IMG/VR virus record: IMGVR_UViG_3300043331_001676
Span: 1 to 64,000 of that record
Length of the DNA: 64,000 nt
Origin: a virus
Reading direction: 5' to 3' (one strand)
Positions 5,195 to 29,126 of the stretch are shown in pieces. Below the pieces are notes generated by a model that saw only the letters and a list, made by a program, of their open reading frames with translations, made no database searches and was not told where the DNA came from. The position numbers and the translations under genes are program-made. Position 1 is the first letter of the stretch. Each line of letters opens with the position of its first letter.

Positions 5195-5206
5195 TTTGGA
5201 TACTCC

Positions 5207-7794: not shown

Positions 7795-8004
7795 ATGCCC
7801 CATGTGCTTTATCAAACTTTGCTCCATAACCCTATAAACGTTCCATCACATTCTGAATTCGCTTTTCTAATCATTCTCAACCTGGCAGAGAAGGCCGGTG
7901 TATCAGTTAGGGATGTGATTGACTGGCTCAAGTCAGGCCAGCCCGAACCTAGGGAACTTCCTTCCGTTGTTGTTCATTCAATATCTTCTGTAAACGACCG
8001 ATGA
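7795..8004 (+). CDS. Small possible HTH protein convergent with the repressor
   Basis: GGAAGGG RBS; LAEKAGVSVRDVIDWL is HTH-like. Confidence 0.35.
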   Translation: MPHVLYQTLLHNPINVPSHSEFAFLIILNLAEKAGVSVRDVIDWLKSGQPEPRELPSVVVHSISSVNDR

Positions 8005-9183: not shown

Positions 9184-9432
9184 ATGAAGCTTACTTCTCA
9201 AACCTCTGATTATGCCCTTGAGGAAGTTCCTGGTTCACAGTACCAGACAGTTGAACAGTGCCAGGAAGCGCTTCTTGAGCCACTGGCCCGGTTGATCGCC
9301 GAGATGATCTGCCAGGCCCGGTTAGCAGATGAGGGCAAACGTGATACAATAGAGCCGTGTCCTGAGAACTTCCTGAGCGCAACCGAAGGGTTTATCGAAG
9401 GACCAAAAAACTTCGAGGCGAGCAATGTTTAA
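9184..9432 (+). CDS. Small protein upstream of the integrase (RDF candidate)
   Basis: AGGA RBS; overlaps the integrase start; function inferred from position only. Confidence 0.45.
   Translation: MKLTSQTSDYALEEVPGSQYQTVEQCQEALLEPLARLIAEMICQARLADEGKRDTIEPCPENFLSATEGFIEGPKNFEASNV
9322..9350 (+). promoter_or_regulatory. Possible dedicated integrase promoter
   Basis: TTAGCA-17 nt-TACAAT with extended -10 TG. Confidence 0.5.
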
Positions 9433-13767: not shown

Positions 13768-14421
13768 ATGATAACGCTTAAGCTCGGCACTAAACAGGAC
13801 CTCGACTGGGCGCAGGCCGTCGCCCTAAAGTATCACTACCTGCACCAGCGCGTGGACAACCGGGCCAGACCTATGGTCTACCTGGTTACGATAGCCGGGG
13901 TCCGGCTGGGTCTGGTCATGGTCGGCATCCCCCACGCCACCCGCTGCCGGGGTTGGTGGGGCTATCCTGGCCTGCCGACCCAGTGGCAGGTGCTGGACCT
14001 GTGCCGCATCTGGCTCGACCCGGCCATCCAGGCTGGCGGCGAATTTGCCAGGCCCGGTTATGTCCCCGGCTTCGTGGACCGCCACGGCCAGTTTCGCCCG
14101 ACCGTGGCGAGCTGGGCTATCGGCCAGGTGCTGGAGCGGTTACAGCGGGACTGGATCAGCCTGTGGCCGCCGGTCTTTCCTGAGCGGCCTTATCACATTC
14201 GTCTGGTCATCAGTTATCACGACCCGAAGCATCACAGGGGGACCATCTACCGGCTAATGAAAGCCCTGCCGATGTACACCGACAAAAGCAAGCTGCCTAT
14301 CCCTGGACCATCCGGCAAGTTCGGCTGGTGCTGGCGGCTGCCGGAGCCGGCCTGGGAGTGGCCGGAGGTCGAGATCAGGCAGCCGCGCACCATGCGGCTG
14401 GAGTTGGGGGACTATGGCTAG
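13768..14421 (+). CDS. Mom-like GNAT-fold DNA modification protein
   Basis: YHYLH, GLVMVG.P, DLCRIWL, VISYHDP..HRGTIYR resemble phage Mu Mom-family motifs. Confidence 0.65.
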   Translation: MITLKLGTKQDLDWAQAVALKYHYLHQRVDNRARPMVYLVTIAGVRLGLVMVGIPHATRCRGWWGYPGLPTQWQVLDLCRIWLDPAIQAGGEFARPGYVPGFVDRHGQFRPTVASWAIGQVLERLQRDWISLWPPVFPERPYHIRLVISYHDPKHHRGTIYRLMKALPMYTDKSKLPIPGPSGKFGWCWRLPEPAWEWPEVEIRQPRTMRLELGDYG

Positions 14422-14611
14422 AGTGCTCCGGGGCGCGGTCCCGGCCCACGACCAGAAGCTTGAGCCGGAGGCTCGACTATTGATCGCGGTCTTCCGGCAG
14501 GCCCGGATTGATCTATTTTCAGCCTCGGACCAGATCAGGACCATGGCCGAGCGGTTCCTGGCCTCGTATGGCTACGATGTCGAGGAGATCAGGGCTTGCT
14601 GGAAGCGATAA
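14414..14611 (+). CDS. Small phage hypothetical protein
   Basis: RLLIAVFRQARIDL helix; GGGGG RBS. Confidence 0.55.
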   Translation: MARVLRGAVPAHDQKLEPEARLLIAVFRQARIDLFSASDQIRTMAERFLASYGYDVEEIRACWKR

Positions 14612-14645
14612 ATCAGAACGAGCGTTTCGAGAAAGGACACTGACG

Positions 14646-15644
14646 ATGGGCGAAAATAGCAAGATTGAATGGTGTGACCACTCCTGGAATCCGTGGATTG
14701 GCTGCGTCAAGGTTAGTCCTGGCTGCAAGTTCTGTTATGCCGAGGAGCTAATGACCCGCAAGGGGCGCTGGGCCAACACATGGGGACCGGCACAGACTTC
14801 CGAACGGATTAAAACCAGTGATGACAACTGGCGCAAGCCCTTGCGGTGGAATCGACAGGCCCAAAAAGAGGGACGGCGGTTCAAGGTCTTTTGCGCGTCG
14901 TTGGCCGACGTGTTTGAAGATAATCCCCAAGTTTATGATTGGCGGCTTCAGCTATTTAGCCTTATTAGCGAGACGCCTAACCTGGATTGGCAGATACTAA
15001 CCAAGCGGCCTGAATTTGCCAGGGCGTTTTTTGAGAAGCGCCCACACTTGCTTTGGCCCAATGTTTGGCTTGGTACGAGTGTCGAAAATCAGGAGCAAGC
15101 CGATAAGCGCATACCCGAATTGCTCAGGACCCCGGCTCAGGTTCGTTTCCTGAGTTGTGAGCCGCTTTTGGAGCCGGTACGGTTGGCTGATGCGTGGTTA
15201 TATGATTATGTAACTGATAGGCGAGACGCTTGTTTTATTGATTGGGTCATTGTTGGCGGCGAATCAGGACCGCAGGCGAGGCCGATGCACCCCGAATGGG
15301 CGTGGCAAATCGAGCGGCAATGTGAAGCGGCAGGCGTAGCCTTTTTCTTTAAGCAGCACGGCGAATTTATTAGCAAACCCGAAATTGCCGATTTGACCGA
15401 AGATGGATGGAAGGTCAGGCCAGAATGGTTGCCGATGATTCAAGGTAGCCGGTGGGGTTGTCTTGACATCAACGGAAAGTACAGGCCGGAAACTACAACC
15501 TGGAATGGGCGGCAAAATGATCCACAGGATGATTATGAGGTTACGGTTTATAAGGTCGGCAAACATAACGCTGGTCGCCTGCTCGATGGCCGGACGTGGG
15601 ACGAGTTCCCCGACACCGCCACGCTTGAGCCGGCCACACTTTAA
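14646..15644 (+). CDS. DUF5131 / phage Gp37-Gp68 radical-SAM-like protein
   Basis: SKIEWCDHSWNPWIGCVKVSPGCKFCYAE, LTKRP, FLSCEPLL, WVIVGGESG, FFKQ; AAAGGA RBS. Confidence 0.92.
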   Translation: MGENSKIEWCDHSWNPWIGCVKVSPGCKFCYAEELMTRKGRWANTWGPAQTSERIKTSDDNWRKPLRWNRQAQKEGRRFKVFCASLADVFEDNPQVYDWRLQLFSLISETPNLDWQILTKRPEFARAFFEKRPHLLWPNVWLGTSVENQEQADKRIPELLRTPAQVRFLSCEPLLEPVRLADAWLYDYVTDRRDACFIDWVIVGGESGPQARPMHPEWAWQIERQCEAAGVAFFFKQHGEFISKPEIADLTEDGWKVRPEWLPMIQGSRWGCLDINGKYRPETTTWNGRQNDPQDDYEVTVYKVGKHNAGRLLDGRTWDEFPDTATLEPATL

Positions 15645-15661
15645 TCTCTTGAGGGAGGGTT

Positions 15662-15970
15662 ATGAGTATGCGAATCGGAGACAAAGCCACCTACACGGGC
15701 ACGGCCTACCCCTGGGCCACCGGCCGCGAAGTCGAGATCAAGGGGATCATCCGGGATAACCGGACCATCAAGGATAACGTGCTGCTGGACGCTACAGGCG
15801 GCACCCGGGAGAGCGACCACGTGATCTTCTCGCTGCTGGATGCCGATGGCTTCCGGTTTAGCGCGCCGGATGCGCGGCTGGGGGATTTTGAGGTGCAGCC
15901 GGTGATTGCTCAAGCGCCGCTGGGTGCGGCCGTGGAGGCTGCCGAACCGGAATTCCTAACGCTCGTTTGA
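15662..15970 (+). CDS. Hypothetical protein
   Basis: GGAGG RBS. Confidence 0.65.
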   Translation: MSMRIGDKATYTGTAYPWATGREVEIKGIIRDNRTIKDNVLLDATGGTRESDHVIFSLLDADGFRFSAPDARLGDFEVQPVIAQAPLGAAVEAAEPEFLTLV

Positions 15971-15973
15971 ACG

Positions 15974-16002
15974 TTGATTTCGGGATTCGAGTGTGATAGA
16001 CT
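15974..16002 (+). promoter_or_regulatory. Promoter of the methyltransferase cassette
   Basis: TTGATT-17 nt-TAGACT with extended -10 TG; the 12-bp palindrome lies just upstream. Confidence 0.5.
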
Positions 16003-16179
16003 GAATAAAATAAAATTGCCTTGACCCGTCCTGCCGCCAAGCTAAGCCGGGTCAAGGCTGATGACAGGAGTCCGCAGGTAAGGGCAAACTACCGTCTTTT
16101 GCTATTATACCATGCTTTGCCCCCGACCGGGCAAGTTTGCCGCCTCGCCTGTTGATTCCACAAACGGGATCAGCGATCA

Positions 16180-17730
16180 ATGCCAAAATACAAACCTATA
16201 GGTCAGGGCCAGGGTTGGACCGTTATTAAGGCTGATGTGCTAGATTACCTGGTTGGCTCGCTCTGGCTGCGCCAATACTACGGCGAATATTTCCATTTCC
16301 TGTTTGACGATTGGCCCTATAACCTCGATTCTATCACCCGGCGGTTCGGCCCAGCGGGCAGCGCCCCGGCTCAATTTGGCCGGGACGGGGCCTTTGCCCG
16401 GCAGTCACGCGGATTCATGGGGCAAACCTGGGACACTGATTTGGCCTACCAGCCGGAAACCTGGACCACTATCCTACCCCATCTCTACCCCGGCGCGTTT
16501 ACCGCCAGCTTCAGCCATCCCCGAAAGCAGCACCGACTGGCGCTGGCCCAGGAGTTAGCCAGGTTTGTGATAAATCCGGCGCTGTACCAGATCGGCTGGG
16601 TGTATGCAAGTGGCAAGCCGAGCGGGACGCGCATTGACACACAGATTGACCGGCGAGCTGGGGCCGAGCGGGAAGTGGTGGGGCAGGTAAAACGATGGGG
16701 TCACAATGCAGGGGCCGGCTCCGGCAGCTTCTATGCTAATGGATATCAGGCCACCACCGGCAGAGCGAAACTTGACGTTATTACTACCCCCGCCACCGCC
16801 CTGGCCCAAACCTGGGCCGGCCATCAATACGGCTCACCCCTGGCCCCGGAACTGGAACCGATCATTATCGCTCAAGCTCCCTGGCCAGAGAACAGGCTCG
16901 ATACCATCTTGAAAACCGGCGCAGGCGCGGTCAATATCGAGGCGGGGAAAAATGGGATGCCGGAACGGGGATACCCCGGCCACTTTATCCTCACGCATCA
17001 TCCTGGATGTGGCTACCTGGGCGAGAAGCGGGTCAGGAACGGCAGCGGTGACGTGACCGGCCAGGAGCCGAGCAGCCAGGCTTACGGCAAGACATTAAAC
17101 ACTTACGCCGGGAACTTTAAGCCCAAACCCTATCAAGCCAAAGGGGACCAGGACGGCTATATCAGCGTCCCTGATTACGATTGCCACCCGGATTGCCCGG
17201 CCCGGCGGCTCGACGAGCAGGCGGGCGAAAAGAGTTACCACTTCTACCAGGCCGACTGGACGTATGATATTCAGGAGCGCCTGGCCGGGATCAATCCGCT
17301 TTATTACCAGGGCAAGGTCACTGCGCTTGAGCGCAATGCCGGCTGTGGCCAACTGCCGCTTAAGGAGAGGCGGCGAGTCAATCCGGGCGGGCTGGAACGA
17401 GAGAAGCGATTCGCGAGTACCTGGCAGCACAATGATCACCCTACCCTGAAAAGCATCAAGTTGTGCAAGTGGATTGCTGGCCTGTTTCTGCCGCCGGAGC
17501 AGTACCGGCCCAGGCGGGTCCTTGTGCCGACCTGTGGCACGGGCAGCGAAATGATCGGCTGCCTGCTGGCCGGGTGGGATGAGGTAATTGGGGTGGAATT
17601 AAATGCCGGTTACGCAGAGGTGGCCTGCCGGCGCCTGGAGTGGTGGTCCAGGCATCTGGAATGGGGCCTGAATGATGTGGACCGGATTATGGCCAGCGCC
17701 AGGACGGGCGCGGCCCAGGCAATGTTTTAA
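16180..17730 (+). CDS. Phage DNA N6-adenine/N4-cytosine methyltransferase (beta class, divergent motifs)
   Basis: DWPY (DPPY-like), GFMGQTWD, EPIIIA, HPTLKS, VLVPTCGTGS, IGVEL. Confidence 0.85.
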   Translation: MPKYKPIGQGQGWTVIKADVLDYLVGSLWLRQYYGEYFHFLFDDWPYNLDSITRRFGPAGSAPAQFGRDGAFARQSRGFMGQTWDTDLAYQPETWTTILPHLYPGAFTASFSHPRKQHRLALAQELARFVINPALYQIGWVYASGKPSGTRIDTQIDRRAGAEREVVGQVKRWGHNAGAGSGSFYANGYQATTGRAKLDVITTPATALAQTWAGHQYGSPLAPELEPIIIAQAPWPENRLDTILKTGAGAVNIEAGKNGMPERGYPGHFILTHHPGCGYLGEKRVRNGSGDVTGQEPSSQAYGKTLNTYAGNFKPKPYQAKGDQDGYISVPDYDCHPDCPARRLDEQAGEKSYHFYQADWTYDIQERLAGINPLYYQGKVTALERNAGCGQLPLKERRRVNPGGLEREKRFASTWQHNDHPTLKSIKLCKWIAGLFLPPEQYRPRRVLVPTCGTGSEMIGCLLAGWDEVIGVELNAGYAEVACRRLEWWSRHLEWGLNDVDRIMASARTGAAQAMF

Positions 17731-17796
17731 GCGGGTCCTTCGTAAATTCTAAACGAGCGTTTCAAAGTAAGGCGGCGGAGAAAAACAAGGAGTGCA

Positions 17797-18993
17797 ATGA
17801 ATCACGACACATCTATCGAGGCCAGATTTGAAGGACATGAAGTCGTCGAAGCTGGCACAGCTACCATCCCTCACCTGCTTCTGTGGCATTATCGTGACCT
17901 GGGATTGGTGGATGCTCAATTCACCCTGCTCACTCTGATCATTGCCAGGAAGTGGACCAGGGAAGCCCCCTATCCATCCCTGGCCCGGCTGCCCATGACC
18001 GCCAATTTGGACAGCCGGCGGCGCTATGTCCGGGACCTGCGCCAGAAGGGCCTCATTTTTACAAGCCGGCTTTACTGGACCAATAAGGACATAGAGGGAA
18101 ATCCGAGCGCCAGGCCGGGGCGCGTCAGGTCCAATATATGGTATCTGGGCAGCCTTTTTCATAATCTGGTCAGGATTCACCGCTGGCTCCACGAAGGCAA
18201 TCCCGCAGCATCATTTTGCGTTGAAATCCCCCTGACCACGATCAAGATGTTTCTCAAGGGCGATTTTCACGATACACCGGAATATATCATCAACATTATC
18301 AATCAGCAGACTCAGGGTGGGGTCGTTCTCAAGACAGTTACTCTACCGTGCGAAAAACGCACAGTAGGAAAATCTACTATGCGTTTTTCTAGTAGTAGTT
18401 TTTCTAGTAGTAGAAAAACGCATAGTCATGAAGAAGAATCAGAGTCTAAGAAGAATCAAAAGAAAAAGAAGAATAAGGTAAAGGGCGCTGACGCGCCGCC
18501 TCTTCATGGGAGGAACAACCTGCCGGCAGAGGTGGCTATCAAAACCAGGGTTAAGGAAGTCTTTTGTCTAAAGACAGGCTTAAGCATGCCCCGACGCAAA
18601 ACGGATCAAAACTTCTGGTGGTCCAACTTTGGCGAGATCGCCAGTATTGCCGAACAAAACATCGAGCGGGCCGAATGGCTGGTCGAGGAGGTCATTACTT
18701 ACATGACAGATGAGCACCTGACTATTTCCGGCCCGCAAAGCATTGTAAATCTGTGCCGGTCGTTAGCCGCCGGCCAGGTATTAGCAAAAGGAGGTACTAA
18801 GAAAGATGGACAAACTAGACGCAGTAATATCAAAGGTTTACGAGAAAACGGCAGCGATAACCCCATCAAGCCAATCTTCGACCCCGACACCGGGGAAGAT
18901 TACTACGTTGACGCCCGATCCGGGCAGCGGGTCCATCCTGACGGCTGCCCCTGCTACGGGTGCCATCCAGAGCACCGACCCGACCCAGCCTGA
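17797..18993 (+). CDS. Replication initiator protein
   Basis: N-terminal wHTH (YPSLARL...RRYVRDLRQKGLI), central iteron-coded low-complexity linker, precedes a DnaC-like gene. Confidence 0.75.
   Translation: MNHDTSIEARFEGHEVVEAGTATIPHLLLWHYRDLGLVDAQFTLLTLIIARKWTREAPYPSLARLPMTANLDSRRRYVRDLRQKGLIFTSRLYWTNKDIEGNPSARPGRVRSNIWYLGSLFHNLVRIHRWLHEGNPAASFCVEIPLTTIKMFLKGDFHDTPEYIINIINQQTQGGVVLKTVTLPCEKRTVGKSTMRFSSSSFSSSRKTHSHEEESESKKNQKKKKNKVKGADAPPLHGRNNLPAEVAIKTRVKEVFCLKTGLSMPRRKTDQNFWWSNFGEIASIAEQNIERAEWLVEEVITYMTDEHLTISGPQSIVNLCRSLAAGQVLAKGGTKKDGQTRRSNIKGLRENGSDNPIKPIFDPDTGEDYYVDARSGQRVHPDGCPCYGCHPEHRPDPA
18346..18480. other. Probable replication origin within the initiator gene
   Basis: Perfect 16-bp inverted repeat 18376-18391/18411-18426, 15-bp direct repeats GTTTTTCTAGTAGTA, then an A-rich tract. 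Confidence 0.7.
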
Positions 18994-19852
18994 TCCCTTC
19001 GATGAACCCTTCGACCGCGCCCTTCGACAGGCTCAGGACAGCGCTCAGGAAGTTCTCAGGGCGCAGCCCTGCCCGGCCTGCGGCGGGACCGGCTTTTTCC
19101 GCCTCGATGCCCCGGTCGGTGCGCCCGGCTTTGGCCGCCTGGAAGCCTGCGATCACCCCAACCATACCCCAGTGAGGTTGGCCCGCCTGTCCGGCCTATC
19201 TAGCCTGCTTCCGGCTGAGGCAAAAAAGCGGCTTAAGGACATAAGGTCCAATAGCAAAAATGGCGAGGTCCTGGAGGCGGCCAGGGAGATGATTCGCAAT
19301 CCGCGCGGCTGGTGGCTGTACCTGTACGGCAAGGCTGGCAACGCCAAGAGCGATGTCCTTCTGGCCGTCCACAACGAGATCAATGCCGCAGGCCGGGGTC
19401 CGGCGCTCTACGTTGAATTCACCCGGCTGCTGAACTGGATCACCGAAGCCCACAACGAGAAGGATTATCGCAGCAAATTCCTGGCCGGCGGGGGCGGGAA
19501 AGAGGGGGGGATGCCCGACAGTCTCGGCTACCAGGCCCGCCTGGACCGGATTACGGCCCTCCCGGTCATCCTCATTGACGAATTCGACAAGGCTCGGATG
19601 ACCGACTTCCGGGAAGAGTTCCTGTTCGAGTTCCTGAACACCCGCTGGCGGCAGGCCGTGGCCGGGGAGACGGCCACCCTGTTTGCCGGCCAGACCGCGC
19701 CCATTGACTGGCCCGACCCGATCCGCAGCCGGATTGAAGACGGGCGTTTCAAAGTCGTCCACAACCTGGCCGGCGATGCCCGACGGGCGATGAAAAGAAC
19801 CCTTCGACCCTTCGACTTCGCTCAGGAAGTTCAAGCTCAGGATGGGAGGTGA
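18806..19852 (+). CDS. DnaC/IstB-like AAA+ helicase loader
   Basis: CPACGGTG zinc motif, variant Walker A GKAGNAKS, Walker B ILIDEFD, IRSRI. Confidence 0.8.
   Translation: MDKLDAVISKVYEKTAAITPSSQSSTPTPGKITTLTPDPGSGSILTAAPATGAIQSTDPTQPDPFDEPFDRALRQAQDSAQEVLRAQPCPACGGTGFFRLDAPVGAPGFGRLEACDHPNHTPVRLARLSGLSSLLPAEAKKRLKDIRSNSKNGEVLEAAREMIRNPRGWWLYLYGKAGNAKSDVLLAVHNEINAAGRGPALYVEFTRLLNWITEAHNEKDYRSKFLAGGGGKEGGMPDSLGYQARLDRITALPVILIDEFDKARMTDFREEFLFEFLNTRWRQAVAGETATLFAGQTAPIDWPDPIRSRIEDGRFKVVHNLAGDARRAMKRTLRPFDFAQEVQAQDGR
18995..19063 (+). repeat. Triple-nested REP-like (CGTC-type) unit CCCTTCGACAGGCTCAGGAC; family has more than 12 loci in the window
   Basis: Three CCCTTCGA left halves followed by three CTCAGG right halves; other loci at 2333, 6164, 9358, 11131, 11202, 19800, 32020, 36362, 37008, 38823, 43969, 49462. 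Confidence 0.85.
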
Positions 19853-19855
19853 ACG

Positions 19856-20266
19856 ATGTGGCTCTTTACAACCTTCGGCTTTTTCTCTGTCGTCAAAAAG
19901 CACGGCGACACAGATTTAACCGTTCGCGCTCGTGTGGCCGCCGACCTGGACAATCTCAGAACGCGCGTTCCCGAACTCTCGGAGACTATTGCCACCCCGG
20001 ACCAGGATTACCCGTACCGGGCCACCGTCTCGGCGGTAAACCTGGCTATCGGCCTGGGTGAGGCGATCCAGGAGATTGACTACGATAACTTCAAGGCCGA
20101 GGGACCCATTGGGCCGACACTGGCCCGGCGGCAGGGCTATTTCCGGGCCGGGATGTACAGCCAGGTCTGGATGGGGCTGCATAACCTGCCTTATGAAGCG
20201 GGAAACCCTTCGACCTTGCTGGCCTCTCCGGGCCACTTCGTCTGGACAGGCCCTGATGTCAAGTAA
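19856..20266 (+). CDS. Conserved phage hypothetical protein
   Basis: MWLFT.FGFFSVV..VRAR..DYPYRA..IDYDNFK; GGAGGT RBS. Confidence 0.7.
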   Translation: MWLFTTFGFFSVVKKHGDTDLTVRARVAADLDNLRTRVPELSETIATPDQDYPYRATVSAVNLAIGLGEAIQEIDYDNFKAEGPIGPTLARRQGYFRAGMYSQVWMGLHNLPYEAGNPSTLLASPGHFVWTGPDVK

Positions 20267-20483
20267 ACGCCGCCGGCGCAGGCGCGAGTGCGAGGGCAAG
20301 CAGCGCTTCGAGAGTCCCGAAGCGGCAGGCCGGATGATCGGCTGGCTGGCCCGCATTGGCCGGCTCAGGCCCGGCACCCACGCCTACCCCTGCGATTTCG
20401 GCAACCACTGGCACATTGGCCGGGGCAGGAGAGGGCTGCGCCGGCAGCGGATCAAGAGCTGGCAGTGGAATATGGGAGTATGA
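20256..20483 (+). CDS. Small basic zinc-binding phage protein
   Basis: C.GKQRF...AYPCDFGNHWHIG. Confidence 0.65.
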   Translation: MSSKRRRRRRECEGKQRFESPEAAGRMIGWLARIGRLRPGTHAYPCDFGNHWHIGRGRRGLRRQRIKSWQWNMGV

Positions 20484-20484
20484 G

Positions 20485-21786
20485 ATGACTTTAGTAAAAC
20501 AAACCAACCGCCGTATCTCTTTTTTTGACGACCAGCGCTTAACTCAGAGCGAGGCTATCGAGCTGACCGCGCAGGCGCTTATCTACTACATCGGCCAGTA
20601 CCCGGACGTGGTTGTGTCCTATTCCGGCGGCAAAGACAGCACGTCTTTGCTGACCCTGCTCCTGGTTCTGATCGAAGCCGGGCGGGTGCCCCGGCCCAGG
20701 TCGCTGCGGGTGCTCCTGGCTAATACGCGGGTCGAACTGCCCCTGCTGCACCTGGCGGCCCTCCAGATCATGCAGATCGTGCGAGAAAAGGGCTACCTGG
20801 CACAGGTGGTCGAGCCTCCCCTGGATGACAGGTTTTTTGTGCGCATGTTCGGCTTTGGCTATCCACCCCCACACAATGGCTTTCGCTGGTGCACCGATCT
20901 CTTAAAACTCAAGCCGATGCTGACCGCGCTATTAGCGGCGCGCCAGGCTGCCGGCCAGAAATTTCTGGCCTTGACCGGGATGCGTATTGGGGAATCAGCC
21001 ATGCGCGATCAGCGGATTGTCCTGGCCTGTGGCAGCAAGGATGGCGAGTGCGGCCAGGGAGCTATCCTGGCCCAGGCCCAGGAGAAGGCCAGGAAGGGTG
21101 GGGATAAATTTGGCCTGTACGAAAGCTCCCCGATCTCTTACCTTTTTACCCACACCCCGGCCAGTGAACCCGCCGATGTGCTTTCGCCCTTGCTTCACTG
21201 GCGTGTCTGCCATGTGGCCGACTGGCTGATGCTGGAAGCGCCTTCCTACGGCTTCCCCACCCATCGTGTGCTGGAAGCTTACGGGGCGGGCGTGGGCGAT
21301 AGTGAACCGCTCGAGGCCCGCACCGGCTGCATCGCCTGCCCGGTCGCGGGTAACGGCGATCCGGTCCTGGTCAAGACCACCAGGCTGCCGGGCTGGGAGT
21401 ACCTGCGGCCCCTGCTGCGCCTGCGCGACCTGTACAACGAACTATCCAGGCCGAAGTACCGTCTCAAAAAGTCCGGCGAGCGCAACAAGGACGGCAAGTT
21501 ATCCTCCCGGCCCAACCGGGGCGGACCACTTTTATTTGAGTCACGCCTGTATGGGATGGAGCAGGTATTGCGGATCCAGGCCGAGGTGAATGAAGGCGCG
21601 CGAGCTGCGGGCCGGCCCGAGCTGGTCTTGATCAGCGACGAGGAAAAGACCCGCATCCTGGAACTTATCGAGGCTGAAACCTGGCCTCAGAAATGGAGCG
21701 GGGATGATCTCCGGGGGGATGCGCTGGTAGACCTGGTGGTAGGCGAAGGATTGACCCAGCCGGTTTTGGCCGGGCTGAAAATATAA
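20485..21786 (+). CDS. DndC-like phosphoadenosine-phosphosulfate reductase family protein
   Basis: PP-loop SYSGGKDS, GYPPP..FRWCTD.LK..PM, G.R.GES..R, ARTGCIAC. Confidence 0.85.
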   Translation: MTLVKQTNRRISFFDDQRLTQSEAIELTAQALIYYIGQYPDVVVSYSGGKDSTSLLTLLLVLIEAGRVPRPRSLRVLLANTRVELPLLHLAALQIMQIVREKGYLAQVVEPPLDDRFFVRMFGFGYPPPHNGFRWCTDLLKLKPMLTALLAARQAAGQKFLALTGMRIGESAMRDQRIVLACGSKDGECGQGAILAQAQEKARKGGDKFGLYESSPISYLFTHTPASEPADVLSPLLHWRVCHVADWLMLEAPSYGFPTHRVLEAYGAGVGDSEPLEARTGCIACPVAGNGDPVLVKTTRLPGWEYLRPLLRLRDLYNELSRPKYRLKKSGERNKDGKLSSRPNRGGPLLFESRLYGMEQVLRIQAEVNEGARAAGRPELVLISDEEKTRILELIEAETWPQKWSGDDLRGDALVDLVVGEGLTQPVLAGLKI

Positions 21787-21818
21787 AAGATAGTGAGATA
21801 TTTTACAGGAGGTGCAAT

Positions 21819-22958
21819 ATGACCAATCAAATTCAAACGACGCCAATCACAATACCGCTGGCCAAATTAAAAACAGGCCGGTACCAGCAGCGCAAGGCGT
21901 TTGATGTAGCCGAGATGGGCGGCCTGGCCCGGACAATAAAAGCCGGCAAGCTAATGTTTCCACCTATGGTTATGGCAGTCAACGGCCATTATGAGCTGAT
22001 TGCCGGCGACCGGCGTCGGCGCGCGCTGTATGCCCTGGCCCTGGAATCAGACGGCATGGGGATGGACCAGGCTTTAACCCTGGTTTGCAGTCCGACCGTA
22101 GACCAACTGCCGGACCGCTTCCCGGTGCTGCACAAGATAACAGTGCAGGTCAATCTGAGCCAGGAAACCGACCCTGCCACCCTGCAAACCCTGGCAGCAA
22201 TCGAGAACCTGCAACGGGTTGATTTGACCCCACTGGAGAAAGCAGTGGGGTTTCAAAGTCTGCTCGATGACGGCCTGACCCTGGCCGAGGTTGTCGAGCG
22301 TACCGGCGAAAAAGCCTCTTCCATCAAGCGCTATCTGGCCCTGCTCTCGCTGCCGGAGCCTGTTCAGGAACATTTCGACAAGCGGCGTATCCCCCTTGAT
22401 GTCCTGAAAGAACTGAGCGGGCTGCCCAAAGAAGTACAAATCCAGGTAGCCGAAAAGATGGCAGGCCGCAAAAGTAGTGAAATCAAGGCGCTGGTCAAGA
22501 TGGTTCAGAAGCGGCTGTCTAACTCGCCTCGTGCAACCCCCGGTAACGGATTATCAACGCTGCCGGCGTCGGAAACGGAAGGGGTATCGCTCGGTCTGGA
22601 TAGTACAGAAGTGGAAGCCAATGCGATAGAAACCCGGCCCGCCTCGATTCGGGAGCAGTTGGCCGGGGCGAAGGAGATAATCTCCAAACTCACCATGCAG
22701 CTTCACCTGGATAGCCGGTTACTTAGAATGTGCGCGGAAGAGTTAATTGCTTGCACTCCCGACTCGCGCGTAGCGCTGATAGCCAACGCCAGAGCTGAGC
22801 AAATCGAGCGGTCAATCAAGCTGCGCAAGCGGCAGCCGCCGGTGGCCCAGGTGCAGCGTGGTCTAAAGATCGAGCGCTTCATGGAGAAGCGGCAGCGTGG
22901 CATCAGGCTTCGTCCTGAAGCTCAGCCCGAAGGGAGGCGAGATGCCCAACCTGGTTGA
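21819..22958 (+). CDS. ParB/Spo0J-family protein
   Basis: YQQRK.F, YELIAGDRRRRA, IENLQRVDLTPLE, HTH. Confidence 0.85.
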   Translation: MTNQIQTTPITIPLAKLKTGRYQQRKAFDVAEMGGLARTIKAGKLMFPPMVMAVNGHYELIAGDRRRRALYALALESDGMGMDQALTLVCSPTVDQLPDRFPVLHKITVQVNLSQETDPATLQTLAAIENLQRVDLTPLEKAVGFQSLLDDGLTLAEVVERTGEKASSIKRYLALLSLPEPVQEHFDKRRIPLDVLKELSGLPKEVQIQVAEKMAGRKSSEIKALVKMVQKRLSNSPRATPGNGLSTLPASETEGVSLGLDSTEVEANAIETRPASIREQLAGAKEIISKLTMQLHLDSRLLRMCAEELIACTPDSRVALIANARAEQIERSIKLRKRQPPVAQVQRGLKIERFMEKRQRGIRLRPEAQPEGRRDAQPG

Positions 22959-24303
22959 TGAAGCAGTCCGCCAACTTGATACAGCCCTGGTCTGGCTCGA
23001 AGTACCGCAAGGCAACCGTCGCTATGGGTGGCATCGGCAGGAAGATGCGGTTCTGCGCCGGTGGTGGGGGAAAATTCCCCGGCCCGAACTGGCCCGGCGC
23101 GTTACCGGCGCGCTGCGTCAGGCAACCGGAGACAATCAAGCCGAACGGAGCATCAATGCCTGCATGAACCGGGCCGCTGAATTGGCCCTTGTCGCCTATG
23201 ACGGTGAGCCGGGGGAAACTTATCTCAAGCGGCTTTGCGAGGAGTCGAATGCCCCCTATGAAATGGCGCACAAGTCGGTCAGAGACGGCGAACTGGCCGC
23301 GACGAAAAAAGGCAAGAAACTGTACGTCACCGACCTGGCCTGGGCGCTGTGGCTGACAAGCTACCGTGAACGGCTGCTCACTCAAGGCGAGGTTCTGAAC
23401 GCGCTTGAAGGCGAAGTGGTCCTGACCAAGCGTGAGGCAATGAAATTTACCTGCCTGTCTGAAACTCATCTCGCCCGGTATTTACAGACCGGGGTTATCC
23501 AGGCGTGGCTGCTGCCGGGTATCAAAACCGGCAGGCCGGGAGAGTGGCTGGTGAGTAAAGCTTCAGCCGAAGCTTTTGTTCAGGCGCGTTCAGAAGGCCG
23601 GCTGCGGGCGCTGCTAGATCAAAACCCGAAGTATGTAGCCTTGAGAAACCAATTGACCGGCCAAATTGGCGGGCTGCGCCGGGCCGGCCGGTTAAACGAT
23701 GCCGACCCTCTGACAGAGCCGCAAAGCCTTTACCATCCCGGCTGCTTCACCATCAAGCAGGTGGCCTCTCACCTGGACCTATCTACCCAGGCCGTGCACG
23801 AGGCAATTGCCACTGGCCGGGTCAAAGCAAAAATCATCGTTAAAGGCGGCCGGCCACGCTACGCGATCACGCCGGAGGAGGCCCGGCGCTACGCCGGGCA
23901 GGTAAAGAGCCAGTCTGATACCGCTATCCGGCGCGACACCTGGTATCTGCGCCAGATTAAAGAGGCGAGACTGCTTACGGTACGCGACCTGGCCGAGCGC
24001 TGGCATAGATCGGAAGCGACGGTTCTTTTATGGGCCAAAAAAGCGGGTCTGCCGCGCCGCCGCTGGGGCCGGTACTGGGTCTTTGAACCGGAAGCTCTTG
24101 CTTCATTTGAAGCCACTAATTTCTTGACCCTGAGCGACCTGGCCCAGCGGTGGGGTAAATCTCCCGCTACGGCCGGGTTGTGGACCCGGCAGGCCGGATT
24201 ACCCAGACGCCGGTGGGGCCGGGGGTGGGTATTTGAGCTTGACGTTATCACCTCGTTTGAAACCAGGAAGGGAATTCAGGGTGAAGCAGTTAGATTTTCT
24301 TGA
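22942..24303 (+). CDS. Protein with tandem excisionase/MerR-like HTH domains
   Basis: At least 4-5 units: LTKREAMKF, FTIKQVASHL, LTVRDLAERW, LTLSDLAQRW; GGAGG RBS. Confidence 0.7.
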   Translation: MPNLVDEAVRQLDTALVWLEVPQGNRRYGWHRQEDAVLRRWWGKIPRPELARRVTGALRQATGDNQAERSINACMNRAAELALVAYDGEPGETYLKRLCEESNAPYEMAHKSVRDGELAATKKGKKLYVTDLAWALWLTSYRERLLTQGEVLNALEGEVVLTKREAMKFTCLSETHLARYLQTGVIQAWLLPGIKTGRPGEWLVSKASAEAFVQARSEGRLRALLDQNPKYVALRNQLTGQIGGLRRAGRLNDADPLTEPQSLYHPGCFTIKQVASHLDLSTQAVHEAIATGRVKAKIIVKGGRPRYAITPEEARRYAGQVKSQSDTAIRRDTWYLRQIKEARLLTVRDLAERWHRSEATVLLWAKKAGLPRRRWGRYWVFEPEALASFEATNFLTLSDLAQRWGKSPATAGLWTRQAGLPRRRWGRGWVFELDVITSFETRKGIQGEAVRFS

Positions 24304-24574
24304 GATCGTGCAAAAGACCTCGTTCGACTTCAAACACCACCCTGATCCCGAAATGGTTTTTGGTGATTTAAAAGTGGGCGACTGGTTTCAGATAATTACC
24401 TGGGTTAGCGGGGAATGGCACACGATTTCTGAGGTTTTTGTTCGGGTGGATCAATCTGATGTTTCATTTCCTAACAGCATCGCTCTTGAACGCGACAGGC
24501 GGTATCCTTACCGGCTCGCCACAACCTCATTTTTTAAAGATGTGCCGGTCAGGCTGGTAATAAAATCTGCATAA
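24281..24574 (+). CDS. Hypothetical protein
   Basis: GTG start with AAGGG upstream. Confidence 0.5.
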   Translation: MKQLDFLEIVQKTSFDFKHHPDPEMVFGDLKVGDWFQIITWVSGEWHTISEVFVRVDQSDVSFPNSIALERDRRYPYRLATTSFFKDVPVRLVIKSA

Positions 24575-24604
24575 TTCAAGTAAAAAGAGACGAAGGATCC
24601 CAAT

Positions 24605-24865
24605 ATGTCCCCTCTCCGAATCCAGCAAAAAATAGTCCACCTCAGCCGGCTGCTCAGAGACCTCTCGATGCGCTATACCATCGCCTGCCTGGGGGATGAG
24701 CACGAGGAGGCCCGCCGGCTGGGGGCCGAGGCTCACGAGATCCGTTTTGAGATTTTGCGGCTCAAGCGCGCCTACCAGGATGAAGTGTCGCTCAGGGCAG
24801 AGCAGGCGGCGGCGGTGGCCGAAGCCTGCCGGATCATGGGAGCCGTGGCAGATACCCGGTCATAA
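24605..24865 (+). CDS. Hypothetical protein
   Basis: AAGGA RBS. Confidence 0.6.
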   Translation: MSPLRIQQKIVHLSRLLRDLSMRYTIACLGDEHEEARRLGAEAHEIRFEILRLKRAYQDEVSLRAEQAAAVAEACRIMGAVADTRS

Positions 24866-24892
24866 TCTTTATCCAAAGCACAAGGAGGCTTT

Positions 24893-25504
24893 ATGAACGC
24901 AATCACTCTCAAGCAAAGCCTGGTCGAGGCATTACGCGATAAATCCGGCCTGGAGCAGCACCGGCCCTACCTGGGGATGAGCAGTATCTACTACTGCCCG
25001 CGCAAGCTCTATTTTGATTTTGTCGAGGGCCGGCAGTCATTTACGGATAGGGATCACTATTACTGCTGGCTGGGCTATATGTACGAGGACAGGCTCAAGC
25101 AGCTTCTGGGCGAACAGGTCCAGTATAGGCCCATCGAGATCGTGGCCGAGTGGGATGCGCGCTTCCGGGGACACGCCGACTACCAGTTCGACAGCGCCCT
25201 GGTCGAGATCAAGTCTACCAACTGGGACAAGTATCAGAAGATCGTCGCCGACCGCAGGCCCGACCCGGCTCACGTGGCCCAGGTCCAGATGTATCTCCGC
25301 CACGGCGGCTGGCCGGCCTGCTTCATGATCTATATCGCGCGGGATGTGCCGCCGCGCGAGTGGCAGGCATTCCCGCTCTGGATTTTTGAGATCGGGCCGG
25401 ACCCGGCCCTGGCTGACACGCTGGACCAGAAGGCCCGTCGTATCCTGATGGCCGTAGATAAAGGGCTTCCGCCGAACTGCATTTGTAACTGGTGCCGGCG
25501 GTAG
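24893..25504 (+). CDS. Cas4-like PD-(D/E)xK exonuclease
   Basis: YCPRKLY, GHAD, VEIKS, QVQMY, terminal CICNWC. Confidence 0.85.
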   Translation: MNAITLKQSLVEALRDKSGLEQHRPYLGMSSIYYCPRKLYFDFVEGRQSFTDRDHYYCWLGYMYEDRLKQLLGEQVQYRPIEIVAEWDARFRGHADYQFDSALVEIKSTNWDKYQKIVADRRPDPAHVAQVQMYLRHGGWPACFMIYIARDVPPREWQAFPLWIFEIGPDPALADTLDQKARRILMAVDKGLPPNCICNWCRR

Positions 25505-25555
25505 GGTGGAATTCCAAACGCGCGTTTTGATTTCTTGTAGCCATAGGATTATCCG

Positions 25556-26209
25556 ATGAAGAACCCACAGATAGACACCTTACTGCAAGCAGCCAGAGCC
25601 ACTAACATTCCAGCCGCCTGGTCTGGCGGCTGGTTTGTCGAGAAAACCCAACTCAAATTGCCGCAGCCTGTCTCGTACAGAGGGGGGATAAGGCTCCTGT
25701 CACCCGGAATCTACACGGCTCTTTTCCGAATGACCGACTCGACCATGATGAATTGGCCGCCGGGCGAGGTCGTAATGGAAGATACGCCCTTCGAGTTAAA
25801 AACCCATCTTGAGTTTATGCTCAAAGCAAGGGGCAGCATCCTTGTGACCGGCCTCGGCCTGGGCTGCGTCACGCGCGGCCTGCTGGCAAATCCAGCCGTG
25901 AACCATGTCACCTGCATCGAGAAATCAGCCGACGTTCTAAAGCTGGTGCAGCCTTATATGCCCCAGACCAACCGGCTGTCCATCATCCACGCCGATGCCC
26001 TGGAGTGGACAACGACGACAACTCAAACCTTTGACTACGCCTGGCACGACATATGGTCGAATCGAGATGCCGGCGAGCCTCATCTTGATGAGCTGCACAC
26101 TCATCTAATTTTCAACTGCCGCGACAAAGTGAGGAACCAGGGCGCGTGGAAATACGCACGAGAAGCCAAACGGTTCCTGGCAGCTAAACAGATGAAGCTG
26201 ATGGCTTAA
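25556..26209 (+). CDS. Class I SAM-dependent methyltransferase (spermidine-synthase-like)
   Basis: ILVTGLGLG, VTCIEKS, IIHADA, FDYAWHDIW. Confidence 0.8.
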   Translation: MKNPQIDTLLQAARATNIPAAWSGGWFVEKTQLKLPQPVSYRGGIRLLSPGIYTALFRMTDSTMMNWPPGEVVMEDTPFELKTHLEFMLKARGSILVTGLGLGCVTRGLLANPAVNHVTCIEKSADVLKLVQPYMPQTNRLSIIHADALEWTTTTTQTFDYAWHDIWSNRDAGEPHLDELHTHLIFNCRDKVRNQGAWKYAREAKRFLAAKQMKLMA

Positions 26210-26220
26210 TATCAAAATCC

Positions 26221-26406
26221 GGGCCGGTGAGGCAGCAAGCCGCCGGCAACACCCAGGCTGCAAAACAAAGACCCCCACACCAGGAATAACCCGGTGTAGG
26301 GGACGGTCACAGAACGACCGGAGCGGGCAGAGCGGGGAGTATGGGAAGGGTCGGGAGAGTACGCTCGCCTTCACGGTCGAGAGTACGGCACTAACGAGAG
26401 TGCCGG
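26221..26406 (+). ncRNA. Candidate structured non-coding RNA
   Basis: About 190-nt gene-free gap with five predicted hairpins and a recurring GAGAGTAC motif; no known family recognised. Confidence 0.3.
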
Positions 26407-26534
26407 GAGGGTGATTGTGACTGATCTCATCCTACAACCAATTGGTTTGCTGTTCAACCCCAATTATTGGGGGTACTAAGGATAAGTTCGCAGGCCGGTC
26501 TCCCAGAATTATAAACGAGTGTTAGGAGATTTAA

Positions 26535-26918
26535 GTGATGCCATTTTCTCAAGAGGACCTTATCAGGGGCTTCGGCGACAAACTGTTTGGCCTGCTCACA
26601 ATGACCCAGGCCGACCTGGAAGCGATCCAGGCGCGGGTAGAGGCGGCGACACCGGGGCCGTGGGAAGGGCGACCAAGGCTTTTGCATAATGGTCGGGAGA
26701 TAAGCTGCGAGATCGTGGGGAATATACATCCCGGCTGGGCTACCCCGGTCTGTCAGCTTTCACCCGGCTTTGCCTGGTACGAAAATGACAAAGATTTTTT
26801 GACCAGTGCCCGCACCGACATCCCCGCCCTCCTGGCCGAGATCGAGGCCCTGCGCCGGGCCTGCTACCATTACGCTACCCAGATGGGGCGATGGGGTGAG
26901 AAGGGCAAGAAAAAATGA
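26535..26918 (+). CDS. Ead/Ea22-like phage protein
   Basis: AATPGPW...DFLTSARTDIPALLAEIEALR. Confidence 0.75.
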   Translation: MMPFSQEDLIRGFGDKLFGLLTMTQADLEAIQARVEAATPGPWEGRPRLLHNGREISCEIVGNIHPGWATPVCQLSPGFAWYENDKDFLTSARTDIPALLAEIEALRRACYHYATQMGRWGEKGKKK

Positions 26919-28033
26919 CCGGCTACTTCGGCGTCATCGGCAACCGCGACTACATCAAGATCAAGGGTGAGCGCCGGCCCTTCTGGGAGTTCCTGGACCG
27001 GCAGCCGGCCGGCTGGCTGTGCTCGCTGGCCTACAGTAGAACTGATGTGCCGGCTGCGCCGATGATCTGGGACTGCGGAGCCTGGAGCTACAAGGCCCAG
27101 GAATCGCCCCGGCTGGGCAAAACAGAAGTCACCCCGGCCTGGGCTGCCGGCCAGTATACCCAACTGGCCCGCCCCGGCGATTTCGCCGTCGCCCCCGACC
27201 ATATGCTTATCCCCTTCGCGGGGGTGGACATCGAGGCTCGCCGGCACTTCAACCGCGCCTCGGCCCTGACCTTCATCGAACTCTGCCCGGCCCACCTGCG
27301 CCCGATGGCCGCCGTCCACGGCCTGAGTTTGGCTGAACGAATCGAGAACGCGCGTTTTCTTATGGATGCCGGCTACCACACGCTGGCCCTGGGCGGCCTC
27401 GCGGGGCAGGCGAATAAACGACAGATGATTTTTGAAGTGGTCGGCGCGATCCGCCGTGAATTCCCCGGCGTCTGGCTGCATGTCCTGGGCCTGTCGTCGC
27501 CGGGCTATGCGGCTGAGTGGCAGCGAATAGGGGTGGACAGTTTCGACGGGGCCAGCCACTTCAAGCAAGCCTTCACTGCCGGCAAGTTCTTTATGGAGCA
27601 GGACGGCAAGCTCGCCGGCTACCAGGCGGCCCGGCCTGGCCAGCCTGTCACGGCCCCGGCTTGCGACTGCCTGGCCTGCCTGCGGCTGCGGGCTGAAGGC
27701 GTGGACACCCGGAGCTACGGCTCCAACGAGCATAATATGGGCCGGGCCGCGCACAATCTGAACCAGTTGATGAGGGCTATTGACATCCAGGCCGTGCGCT
27801 CCCCCAGTTTCCCGCTAGATTGCCCGACCGGGGCAGCCGGCCGGCGAGATAACCGCTTGCCGCGCCACTGCGCGGGCTGCCGGTCCTTTCAGGAGAAGGG
27901 CGGCCTACGATGTGTGTACCCTGATTTTGCCAACGATCATCTTGAATTCATCCAGGCTCACCTGGCTCGGACTGGATCGCTGAAAGAGATCGAGTGGACC
28001 CTGCGTGGTGATAACCGGCCCGGGGTCAGGTAA
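26915..28033 (+). CDS. dpdA: DpdA-like DNA guanine transglycosylase (TGT fold)
   Basis: DCGAWSY, APDH, AVHG, LALGGL, LHVLGL, VDSFDGAS nucleophile motif, CDCLAC...HNL zinc site. Confidence 0.8.
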   Translation: MTGYFGVIGNRDYIKIKGERRPFWEFLDRQPAGWLCSLAYSRTDVPAAPMIWDCGAWSYKAQESPRLGKTEVTPAWAAGQYTQLARPGDFAVAPDHMLIPFAGVDIEARRHFNRASALTFIELCPAHLRPMAAVHGLSLAERIENARFLMDAGYHTLALGGLAGQANKRQMIFEVVGAIRREFPGVWLHVLGLSSPGYAAEWQRIGVDSFDGASHFKQAFTAGKFFMEQDGKLAGYQAARPGQPVTAPACDCLACLRLRAEGVDTRSYGSNEHNMGRAAHNLNQLMRAIDIQAVRSPSFPLDCPTGAAGRRDNRLPRHCAGCRSFQEKGGLRCVYPDFANDHLEFIQAHLARTGSLKEIEWTLRGDNRPGVR

Positions 28034-28047
28034 TTGGAGTTAAAGTT

Positions 28048-28404
28048 ATGAGCACCCTCGACCAATACCGCTTAGGCTACGCGCTCAAAAGCAAGCGGTC
28101 CGGCCTGGACCTGAACCTGCGCGAGGTGGCCGCTGCCACCGGCATCAGCACTTCGACCCTGTCGCGGGTCGAGAACGGCAAGGGCCACCTGCTGCAAATA
28201 GATACCTTTCTGGCCCTGTGCGACTGGCTGGGGGCGGACCCGGCCAGCTTCATCGTGCCCGGTACGGAAGCAAACAGCGCACCCGAAATGGGCGACCTGG
28301 AGGAGATTGAGGTCCGGCTGCGGGCCTGCCTGGAAGCGCCGGCGCTGTGTAAGGCTATCGCCGAAGTCATCCGGCTGATCAGGCTTGAGCAAGCAAATTC
28401 ATAA
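28048..28404 (+). CDS. XRE-family HTH regulator
   Basis: LREVAAATGISTSTLSRVENG. Confidence 0.9.
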   Translation: MSTLDQYRLGYALKSKRSGLDLNLREVAAATGISTSTLSRVENGKGHLLQIDTFLALCDWLGADPASFIVPGTEANSAPEMGDLEEIEVRLRACLEAPALCKAIAEVIRLIRLEQANS

Positions 28405-28421
28405 GAACGGAGGATCATCGA

Positions 28422-29126
28422 ATGTTACCTGTACTGATCGGCTGCCGGGGCAATGACCCAGATGCGCCCAAACTGCTGAAAGCTGAGGGCTGGCGTTATG
28501 GTTTTCGGAGTGATGCAACGCCTTACGGCTGGCCTTACTTCGTAGACATCAAATGGTGTGATTATATTTGGTCTAGCCATTTGGCAGTCATTCGTGAATG
28601 GCGGCCCGTAATAGCGATGGTAGCCGATTATGAATCTCTGACTCGGCAATCTTTTATGTTAGCCCAGATTCGTGACATCTCTTCTCTGGGTGTTCGGCCT
28701 ATGGTTTGCCCCAAGTTTTCAGGCGCAGTAGCCGACATTCCAAAAGGTTGCATTGTGGCTGTTTCTGTACCAACCGATTATGCCGGCTTCTTACCTGAAC
28801 CAAGCGAGGTCAAGGGGCGAGAGTTGCATCTTCTCGGCGGCCATCCTGACCAATTTAGGGTGCTGATTCAGCGATATAATCAAAGCAAAGTAGTAAGTAT
28901 TGATTGTTCGGCTATTTTTCAAAAGGCGCAATTTGGGGCTTTTTGGAGCGCAAAACGAAACACATGGAGACATGTGAAGCATCGCTTTTCTACTCACGCA
29001 CTTACCAGAATGAGTGCAAGGCAAGTCACTACATATCTGGGTCAACCCCCTAAGTTATTCCTAAAACAGAGGAAGCGGCTGTACCAGGTTGGCTTCGAGC
29101 TGAAGCCTTCATTGTTTCAAATTTAA
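28422..29126 (+). CDS. DUF6610-like short TGT-related protein
   Basis: FVD..W, VCPKF, SVPTDYAG, LHLLGG.P, VVSIDCS....AQFG; lower GC than flanks. Confidence 0.6.
   Translation: MLPVLIGCRGNDPDAPKLLKAEGWRYGFRSDATPYGWPYFVDIKWCDYIWSSHLAVIREWRPVIAMVADYESLTRQSFMLAQIRDISSLGVRPMVCPKFSGAVADIPKGCIVAVSVPTDYAGFLPEPSEVKGRELHLLGGHPDQFRVLIQRYNQSKVVSIDCSAIFQKAQFGAFWSAKRNTWRHVKHRFSTHALTRMSARQVTTYLGQPPKLFLKQRKRLYQVGFELKPSLFQI

Follow-up and report, generated by a model that had tools for sequence, protein, structure and literature searches.

A canonical DpdA transglycosylase beside a DUF6610 (DpdA4) protein in a probable mosaic of DNA-modification genes of an uncultivated temperate phage

Modification of DNA with 7-deazaguanines has been mapped by the subfamilies of the transglycosylase DpdA, and in this scheme DpdA4, the DUF6610 family, is treated as a speciality of archaeal viruses. 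The name DpdA4 was given to DUF6610 in HVTV-1 (gp69), a preQ1-modified halovirus; the publication presents the family as archaeal-virus-specific and as the sole transglycosylase that these viruses have, and its attempts at demonstrating DpdA4 activity in E. coli did not succeed (Cui, Hutinet et al, 2023; PMC10516641). Bacterial DpdA requires DpdB, a ParB-like ATPase (PMC10164549), and the conversion of dPreQ0 to dADG is performed by DpdC, whose family (DUF328/PF03883) is also that of YaaA (PMC12839542). A different type of mark is made by Mom of phage Mu, which transfers glycine from Gly-tRNA to adenine N6 and works without a partner enzyme; R111 and S124 are indispensable residues and R151A has no detectable activity in vivo (PMC13219725). 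Here we analyse a stretch of 64,000 nucleotides (the window), which corresponds to bases 1–64000 of the 79,023-bp record IMGVR_UViG_3300043331_001676 from an uncultivated virus (about 81% complete according to CheckV), and in particular a block of eight modification-type genes at positions 13768–29126 that includes both a canonical DpdA and a DUF6610 protein.

A preliminary description had listed the eight genes as a Mom-like GNAT, DUF5131, an N6/N4 methyltransferase, a DndC-like PAPS reductase, ParB, a small S-adenosylmethionine (SAM) methyltransferase, a DpdA-like tRNA-guanine transglycosylase (TGT) homolog and a second TGT-like protein. All eight are open reading frames (ORFs) on the + strand within these coordinates, and the assignments of DUF5131, ParB, DpdA and the second TGT-like protein, which is the DUF6610 protein, are firm. 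We consider that the block is probably not a single pathway but a mosaic, located in a temperate phage's early region and composed of four or more separable modules for DNA modification or anti-restriction. Mosaics such as this arsenal are ordinary in phages; what is new is the DpdA/DUF6610 pair, the fusions of GNAT domains to DUF6610 and a divergent Mom clade.

The DpdA-family DNA-guanine transglycosylase (P0004; 26915–28033, + strand) was matched by NF041059 at 1.4e-20 and 73 bits, under the NCBIfam equivalog cut-off of 200, and by the PADLOC DpdA model at 7e-20. When a profile of this protein and five homologs was compared with the PDB, the DNA-guanine transglycosylase 7ui4 was matched at 7e-16, as against 1e-3 for a tRNA TGT. 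The catalytic aspartate pair (D95/D211) and the CxCxxC..H zinc site (C250/C252/C255/H280) are invariant across six homologs. Both features are shared with DpdA of the bacterial Dpd system, and the window protein would likewise act after replication. Searching GenBank phage records with the window DpdA returned one weak match only.

The DUF6610 gene (28422–29126, + strand) begins 389 bp downstream of the end of DpdA. Its product was recognised by PF20314 at 4e-26 (92.2 bits against a cut-off of 27) and corresponds to a minimal TGT-like TIM barrel that lacks the zinc subdomain. The top PDB matches that Foldseek returned for an AlphaFold2 (AF2) model of the protein (pLDDT 93) were structures of Z. 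mobilis TGT, with TM scores of 0.56–0.62, and hhalign detected a local match to DpdA over the segment LHLLGG..SxD (E 6e-4). The protein keeps an aspartate aligned with the invariant Asp211 of DpdA, and the invariant aspartate and the HLLGG motif are common to 21 aligned DUF6610 homologs. With haloarchaeal DpdA4 it has in common the PF20314 domain and the TGT-like barrel, the homologs found by tblastn in HVTV-1, HCTV, HF1/HF2 and HRTV being about 25% identical. However, whereas haloarchaeal DpdA4 is described as the sole transglycosylase of its virus, the window DUF6610 has a canonical DpdA as its neighbour, and the phage carries genes of bacterial type.

The same arrangement was found in the closest relative of the window phage, a 99-kb genome (G006; 96% complete) that shares its structural genes and has a 77% identical major capsid protein. 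Here (locus L008) DpdA (59% identity) directly abuts DUF6610 (67% identity). DUF6610 homologs were also detected in Mycobacterium phages, in a metagenome-assembled genome (MAG) of the Flavobacteriaceae (L017) and in a Terriglobales record, while among GenBank phages the family was confined to haloarchaeal viruses and three mycobacteriophages (Knocker, Rinkes and Funsized). A single-sequence scan of viral contigs found no DUF6610, and an alignment-based search was needed; an exhaustive profile search then identified 675 representative DUF6610 clusters in 1.84 billion proteins, with about half of the top matches being of fusion length. Inspection of 28 loci (nine viral and 19 metagenomic) showed an N-terminal GNAT domain fused to DUF6610 in 20 of them and DpdA in none. 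No other architecture of the family is as common as these fusions, which are roughly 350–390 amino acids (aa) long (P0060–P0122; loci L010, L011, L014, L016, L017 and L074–L090). We do not claim an analogy with the QTRT1/QTRT2 heterodimer, because nine of the eleven viral DUF6610 loci were found without DpdA. The literature searched does not mention DpdA4/DUF6610 beyond the 2023 study, and neither the GNAT–DUF6610 fusions nor the pairing of DpdA with DUF6610 is described there.

The Knocker genome provides a second case in which a DUF6610 domain and a separate DpdA lie side by side. Its gp1 (L104:1-1317), annotated as a 'ParB-like nuclease domain protein', carries a C-terminal DUF6610 domain (aa 227–414, E 2e-19), heads the gp1–gp8 cluster of this Bclasvirinae phage and directly adjoins FolE, DpdA, QueC, QueD and QueE. 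This location ties DUF6610 to bacteriophage 7-deazaguanine clusters that hold a separate DpdA. The two phages differ in that the Knocker domain is joined to an N-terminal ParB-like domain and accompanied by its own FolE, QueC, QueD and QueE, whereas in the window DUF6610 is unfused, the separate and unrelated ParB is encoded 5.5 kb upstream and que genes were not found. The fusion of ParB to a TGT-like domain has gone unrecognised in the annotation of Knocker, and likewise in Rinkes and Funsized. We also considered the window ParB as an analogue of DpdB; the DpdB model did not recognise a DpdB-type ParB ATPase in the window, a point of difference from the bacterial Dpd system, and the protein has no similarity to the ParB domain of Knocker gp1.

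Relatives of the window DpdA (38–63% identity) lack DUF6610 except in G006, and most of them instead have a fused or adjacent DUF6884 domain. DUF6884 (PF21818, 4e-39) was fused to or adjoined DpdA in at least seven relatives, among them L002:8656-9960, L003:9998-11308, L005:166-1437, L095 and L100, where it is C-terminal or adjacent. Pfam's authors describe DUF6884 as YaaA-like (PMC11701544). The DpdA–DUF6884 relatives look like natural fusions of DpdA to a DpdC-like domain, an arrangement undescribed in the literature searched. In the window DpdA, a cysteine-rich tail (CPTG..CAGC..C; residues 290–372, window 27780–28033) replaces the DUF6884 of the relatives. A DUF6884 match to this tail was disregarded as possibly circular, as the tail may have been included in the profile, and apparent 'DpdA-like' profile matches in L024 and L031 proved to be stand-alone DUF6884 proteins.

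Profiles for QueC, QueD and FolE found no match in the 79-kb record including its last 15 kb, where HerA, FtsK and MoxR/VWA proteins are encoded and no que genes were seen; QueE was not searched for specifically. The same three genes were absent from G006 and from three further relatives, one of them 100% complete with terminal repeats; two of these records are at least 96% complete. As the phage lacks preQ0 synthesis genes, any deazaguanine base would have to come from the host. Compared with bacterial DpdA and phage DpdA1–3, the window system therefore has neither a DpdC-like DUF6884 on its transglycosylase nor preQ0 genes in its phage, and without the former the product is likely to be dPreQ0 rather than dADG. 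In the model that we propose for this first module, DpdA would, by homology, exchange guanine in finished DNA for a host 7-deazaguanine (preQ0, perhaps preQ1). DUF6610 would be a second, minimal enzyme of the transglycosylase fold that probably inserts a different host-supplied base or acts in other sequence contexts.

Co-occurrence of the eight genes was assessed in a sample of about 180 loci, anchored on each family in turn and scanned by tblastn and with locally built profiles. The closest relative, G006, encodes a PAPS-reductase homolog (45% identity) 43 kb from its DpdA/DUF6610 pair, and lacks the Mom-like gene, DUF5131, the larger (516-aa) methyltransferase and the small methyltransferase. 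Six loci with DpdA at 53–55% identity contained no close homologs of the other seven genes; profile searches of the same loci detected distant PAPS_reduct matches near two, and one locus had a short methyltransferase. The nine viral DUF6610 loci likewise held few of the remaining genes or none. Of the 12 loci with a close PAPS-reductase relative, 10 contained no other member of the set. Among 80 sampled DUF5131 loci (1.05 Mb) a PAPS reductase was present in one, and the Mom-like gene, DpdA and DUF6610 in none. Apart from the window, no locus of the sample held more than four of the families. Within the window itself, replication genes (DnaD-like and a DnaC-like loader; 17797–19852, + strand; DnaD_N weak, PHROG 50 DnaC-like at 9e-9), a Cas4-like PD-(D/E)xK exonuclease (24893–25504, + strand; PHROG 1990 at 6e-14) and helix-turn-helix (HTH) proteins are interleaved with the modification genes, indicating that the block is not one dedicated operon. 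These results argue against one shared eight-gene pathway, and they caution more generally against reading joint action into the close packing of modification genes in the early region of a phage. The 15-kb block as a whole had no megablast match among GenBank phages.

The Mom-family protein (P0001, 217 aa; 13768–14421, + strand) is divergent. It was matched by PHROG 1384 ('Mom-like') at 1e-4 and by no Pfam family at the default threshold; PF25680 ('Mom') scored it at 15 bits, under the cut-off of 27.1, while homologs at 67–68% identity reached 30.3 and 27.4 bits. Mu Mom (8bv8) was the best Foldseek match of its AF2 model (pLDDT 86; E 7e-6), and VIA gave Z 14.1 for 8bv8 against 12.9 for the next GNAT, a small margin, with a root-mean-square deviation of 2.4 Å over 143 residues. 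The two proteins thus share the GNAT fold at an identity of about 15%, and a profile search of P0001 produced no sequence match to 8bv8. The Mom-like assignment is accordingly a distant one, upheld by the fold and by the close homologs, with P0001 itself remaining under the Pfam cut-off. The clade to which it belongs is unusually conserved: among 311 homologs the best 120 are 59–73% identical, and mean column identity in an alignment of 20 homologs is 53%. R80, S149, D152 and the R157 region are invariant in this alignment and are only candidates for the essential residues of Mom. The clade had no match in GenBank phage records, and a close homolog of the window gene sits on a 283-kb contig of an Anaerolineae MAG. 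From its sequences it appears to be a divergent, highly conserved Mom clade that has no counterpart in cultured phages and is not described in the searched literature. By analogy with Mu Mom, this module would acylate adenine N6 using a charged tRNA. The Mom-like gene is unlikely to be a stand-in for the GNAT that is fused to DUF6610 elsewhere, since locus L031 holds both and the resemblance between the two GNAT types is only generic.

The PP-loop protein (20485–21786 from the likely ATG, with the ORF opening at 20356; + strand) belongs to the PAPS-reductase family (PHROG 12882, 8e-108) and contains the motif SGGKDS. It had been called DndC-like. Membership of the PP-loop PAPS-reductase family holds, and the DndC label does not: TIGR03183 scored 85.9 bits against a cut-off of 290.4, and the PADLOC DndC match (3e-26) covered residues 33–178 only. 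The phosphorothioation role of DndC is thus not transferable to a protein that lies far under the cut-off and matches only the N-terminal PP-loop half of DndC. The resemblance to DndC, SspD and BrxP is limited to SGGKDS and this half, the rest of the protein being unmatched, and among the annotated ORFs we saw no gene for a Dnd, Ssp or BREX partner. We propose that this would be a stand-alone enzyme, placed beside ParB and acting separately from the other modules.

The ParB-family protein (21819–22958, + strand) combines the N-terminal domain with an HTH (HTH_ParB 7e-12; ParB_N 4e-9; TIGR00180 above cut-off), and its gene follows that of the PAPS reductase. This adjacency resembles that of E. 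coli ibrA/ibrB, a pair of PAPS-reductase and ParB genes. A PAPS reductase adjoins ParB in the window and in L048, whereas no ParB_N match was found in six of the ten records with close PAPS-reductase relatives, so that the ParB partner is missing from most of them. On the other side, ParB is followed by a 468-aa protein with multiple HTH domains (22897–24303, + strand; HTH_17 5e-17). The two genes (53% and 64% identity, respectively) are adjacent in the same way at L031:10954-13274. Because the pair is kept there without a PAPS-reductase gene, it may be this HTH protein, and not the PP-loop enzyme, that is ParB's steady partner.

Both proteins listed as methyltransferases are methyltransferase-like, although the assignments are weak or distant. 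The first (516 aa; 16180–17730, + strand) resembles beta-class amino-methyltransferases; the evidence is weak (PHROG 67, 2e-7), PF01555 gave no match, and the C-terminal HPTxK...GxGS region aligned with the PDB methyltransferases 9c3u and 8urk at E 0.02. Its motifs follow the beta-class order, motif IV having the unusual form DWPY in place of DPPY and motif I, after HPTLK, reading TCGTGS, and the protein carries an insert of about 330 aa. At the motif IV position its homologs have DAPY or DPPY. The second is a small Rossmann SAM-dependent transferase (217 aa; 25556–26209, + strand; PHROG 15480, 2e-29) that is distantly SpeE-like and whose nearest Atlas clusters are viral ones of the 'spermidine synthase family' and of methyltransferases. 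A true aminopropyltransferase is unlikely, as its motif is GLGLG and not GGGDG, the SpeE-type motif. One or both of these proteins would, as amino-methyltransferases, add m6A or m4C.

DUF5131 (14646–15644 from the likely ATG, with the ORF opening at 14508; + strand) is a three-cysteine member of the radical-SAM superfamily (PF07505 4e-87, 292 bits against a cut-off of 28.9) with a GCx7CxxC motif, here GCVKVSPGCKFCY. It also matches the PADLOC candidate families PDC-M41B and M30B at 1e-61. The family is Megacluster-5-2 of RadicalSAM.org, beside the spore photoproduct lyase cluster (PMC9477430), and occurs very frequently, viral matches numbering 587 or more. We regard it as a probably independently moving, radical-SAM-like phage gene that would act separately. 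The only recurrent neighbour that profiles detected was a large ParB-domain protein (about 470–800 aa), which lay within 5 kb of DUF5131 in nine of the 80 loci (L105–L184).

The preliminary description had left two alternatives, several independent anti-restriction marks or a shared pathway. Largely independent assortment across relatives fits the former, and is also the pattern that the description itself had set against the latter, which is not supported for the whole set. It is therefore very unlikely that the majority of the genes cooperate towards one hypermodified base not yet described, such as a deazaguanine that is methylated, acylated or thiolated. The eight genes do lie within 15 kb on one strand, the GNAT fusion in about half of the DUF6610 family links acylation to this fold in other phages, and in L031 a GNAT gene, DUF6610 and a Mom-like gene are consecutive. 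However, G006 keeps only two of the genes together, no further locus among the 180 exceeds four families, replication and recombination genes are interleaved, and the GNAT fused to DUF6610 is not Mom-like (hhalign probability 20%). A more limited form of cooperation would comprise two multi-enzyme pathways, one formed by the Mom-like GNAT and the PP-loop enzyme (perhaps with DUF5131) and the other by DpdA and DUF6610 acting on 7-deazaguanine insertion. In the former, a base would receive an aminoacyl group from the GNAT, and the PP-loop enzyme would adenylate and convert the adduct. This model draws on the observation that in five of 15 non-redundant loci the Mom-like gene has a PAPS reductase within 4 kb (adjacent in three), compared with one of the 80 in the DUF5131-anchored baseline (Fisher p = 3e-4), and that the Mom-like, PAPS-reductase and DUF5131 trio occurs in the window, in L034 and in L044, with the genes consecutive and in that order in the last of these. 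It also draws on the adjacency of DpdA and DUF6610 in both the window phage and G006. As a further association, DUF6610 was present in three of the 15 Mom-like loci compared with none of the 80 (p = 0.003); the Mom-like loci are mostly unrelated to each other at the nucleotide level. Against the two-pathway model, ten of the 15 Mom-like loci lack a PAPS reductase, ten of the 12 close PAPS-reductase loci lack a Mom-like gene, no DUF5131 locus of the 80 has one, 6 kb that include replication genes separate the Mom-like gene of the window from its PAPS reductase, and Mu Mom needs no partner enzyme (PMC13219725). Because the baseline was anchored on a different gene and not host-matched, and so possibly drawn from other host lineages, we treat the Mom-like enrichment as a lead and the two-pathway model as unlikely.

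Conversely, several members of the block may not modify DNA at all, in which case the arsenal would shrink to DpdA, the Mom-like GNAT and possibly a single methyltransferase. The PAPS reductase and ParB would then form a regulatory pair of the IbrA/IbrB type, or ParB would have a role in partition or transcription; the 516-aa methyltransferase would have no activity, and DUF6610 would be non-catalytic or an enzyme with a substrate other than DNA. The likeness to ibrA/ibrB, the deviation of motifs IV and I from the methyltransferase consensus, the missing zinc subdomain of DUF6610 and the failed attempts to show DpdA4 activity in E. coli (PMC10516641) all point in this direction. Against them stand the aspartate and HLLGG conserved in all 21 DUF6610 homologs, the placement of this domain inside the preQ0 cluster of Knocker, a PAPS-reductase/ParB pairing that is not conserved in its clade, and the retention of D-x-P-Y and GxG in the methyltransferase, and we judge this possibility improbable. 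Also doubtful, if marginally less so, is the idea that bacterial-phage DUF6610 may install an amine-bearing (preQ1-like) 7-deazaguanine that is then N-acylated, giving the window phage an undescribed acylated deazaguanine on top of dPreQ0. Such a route would engage DpdA (for preQ0), DUF6610 (for the second base) and an acyl or aminoacyl transferase, perhaps with the PP-loop enzyme. It would explain why about half of the DUF6610 family is fused to a GNAT and why unfused forms occur near GNAT or Mom-family genes.

A mosaic of separable modules thus remains the reading that we prefer, and together such modules would blunt several host restriction systems at once. The family and fold assignments, the conserved motifs, the lack of preQ0 genes and the pattern of assortment were observed directly; every chemical activity is inferred. 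A number of points weigh against this reading. The Mom-like protein falls below the Pfam threshold, and its membership of the Mom family is putative. With its non-canonical DWPY and VPTCGTG motifs, the 516-aa methyltransferase could be inactive. The links of the Mom-like gene to the PAPS reductase and DUF6610, together with the recurring trio, suggest that some modules may cooperate. PF01702 gave no match in the DUF6610-bearing records, but with this query the loose first filter of the family search also missed the known DpdA homolog of G006, which means that negative family searches are not fully safe, and with the record 81% complete a preQ0 cluster could sit in the missing part.

For the map of 7-deazaguanine modification, these findings extend DUF6610 beyond archaeal viruses to mycobacteriophages, bacterial MAGs and viral contigs that carry genes of bacterial type. 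The family can adjoin a canonical DpdA and is very often fused to an acetyltransferase domain. Such contexts point to possible chemistry, either acylated deazaguanines or an exchange of bases by two enzymes.

The designation of the phage as temperate is reasonable. A large serine recombinase (integrase; 9425–11032, + strand) with Resolvase, Recombinase and Zn_ribbon_recom domains is encoded upstream of the block, and a CI/Cro-type HTH repressor-like gene (7949–8608, − strand; HTH_3 at 2e-9) is divergent from the integrase and early genes. Several relatives of the phage are classed as proviruses. The long + strand early region is followed by genes for the small and large terminase, portal and major capsid protein from 32.8 kb onward. 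Genes from opposite ends of the record (DUF6744 and AAA_24 in window 1–5200; a MoxR-type AAA and a VWA protein at record 71229–75226, L001:7229-11226) are contiguous in G006, which suggests that the record is a phage genome in circular permutation and not a prophage flanked by host sequence.

Two small genes flank DpdA. Upstream, a 127-aa small phage protein (26535–26918, + strand; PHROG 1667/722, unknown function) is encoded by a gene whose stop codon overlaps the DpdA start codon, and its Atlas matches are generic phage hypotheticals. Between DpdA and DUF6610 lies an XRE-type HTH gene (28048–28404, + strand; HTH_31 3e-10) that is not at this position in G006. No ORF lies in the roughly 300 bp (26219–26534) that separate the small methyltransferase from the DpdA-coupled gene. 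Elsewhere in the record, the MoxR–VWA pair and the HerA/FtsK-type ATPases are unusual cargo for a phage, and a leftward operon includes an NT5C-type 5'-deoxynucleotidase (5495–6076, − strand; 6e-16) that could alter nucleotide pools.

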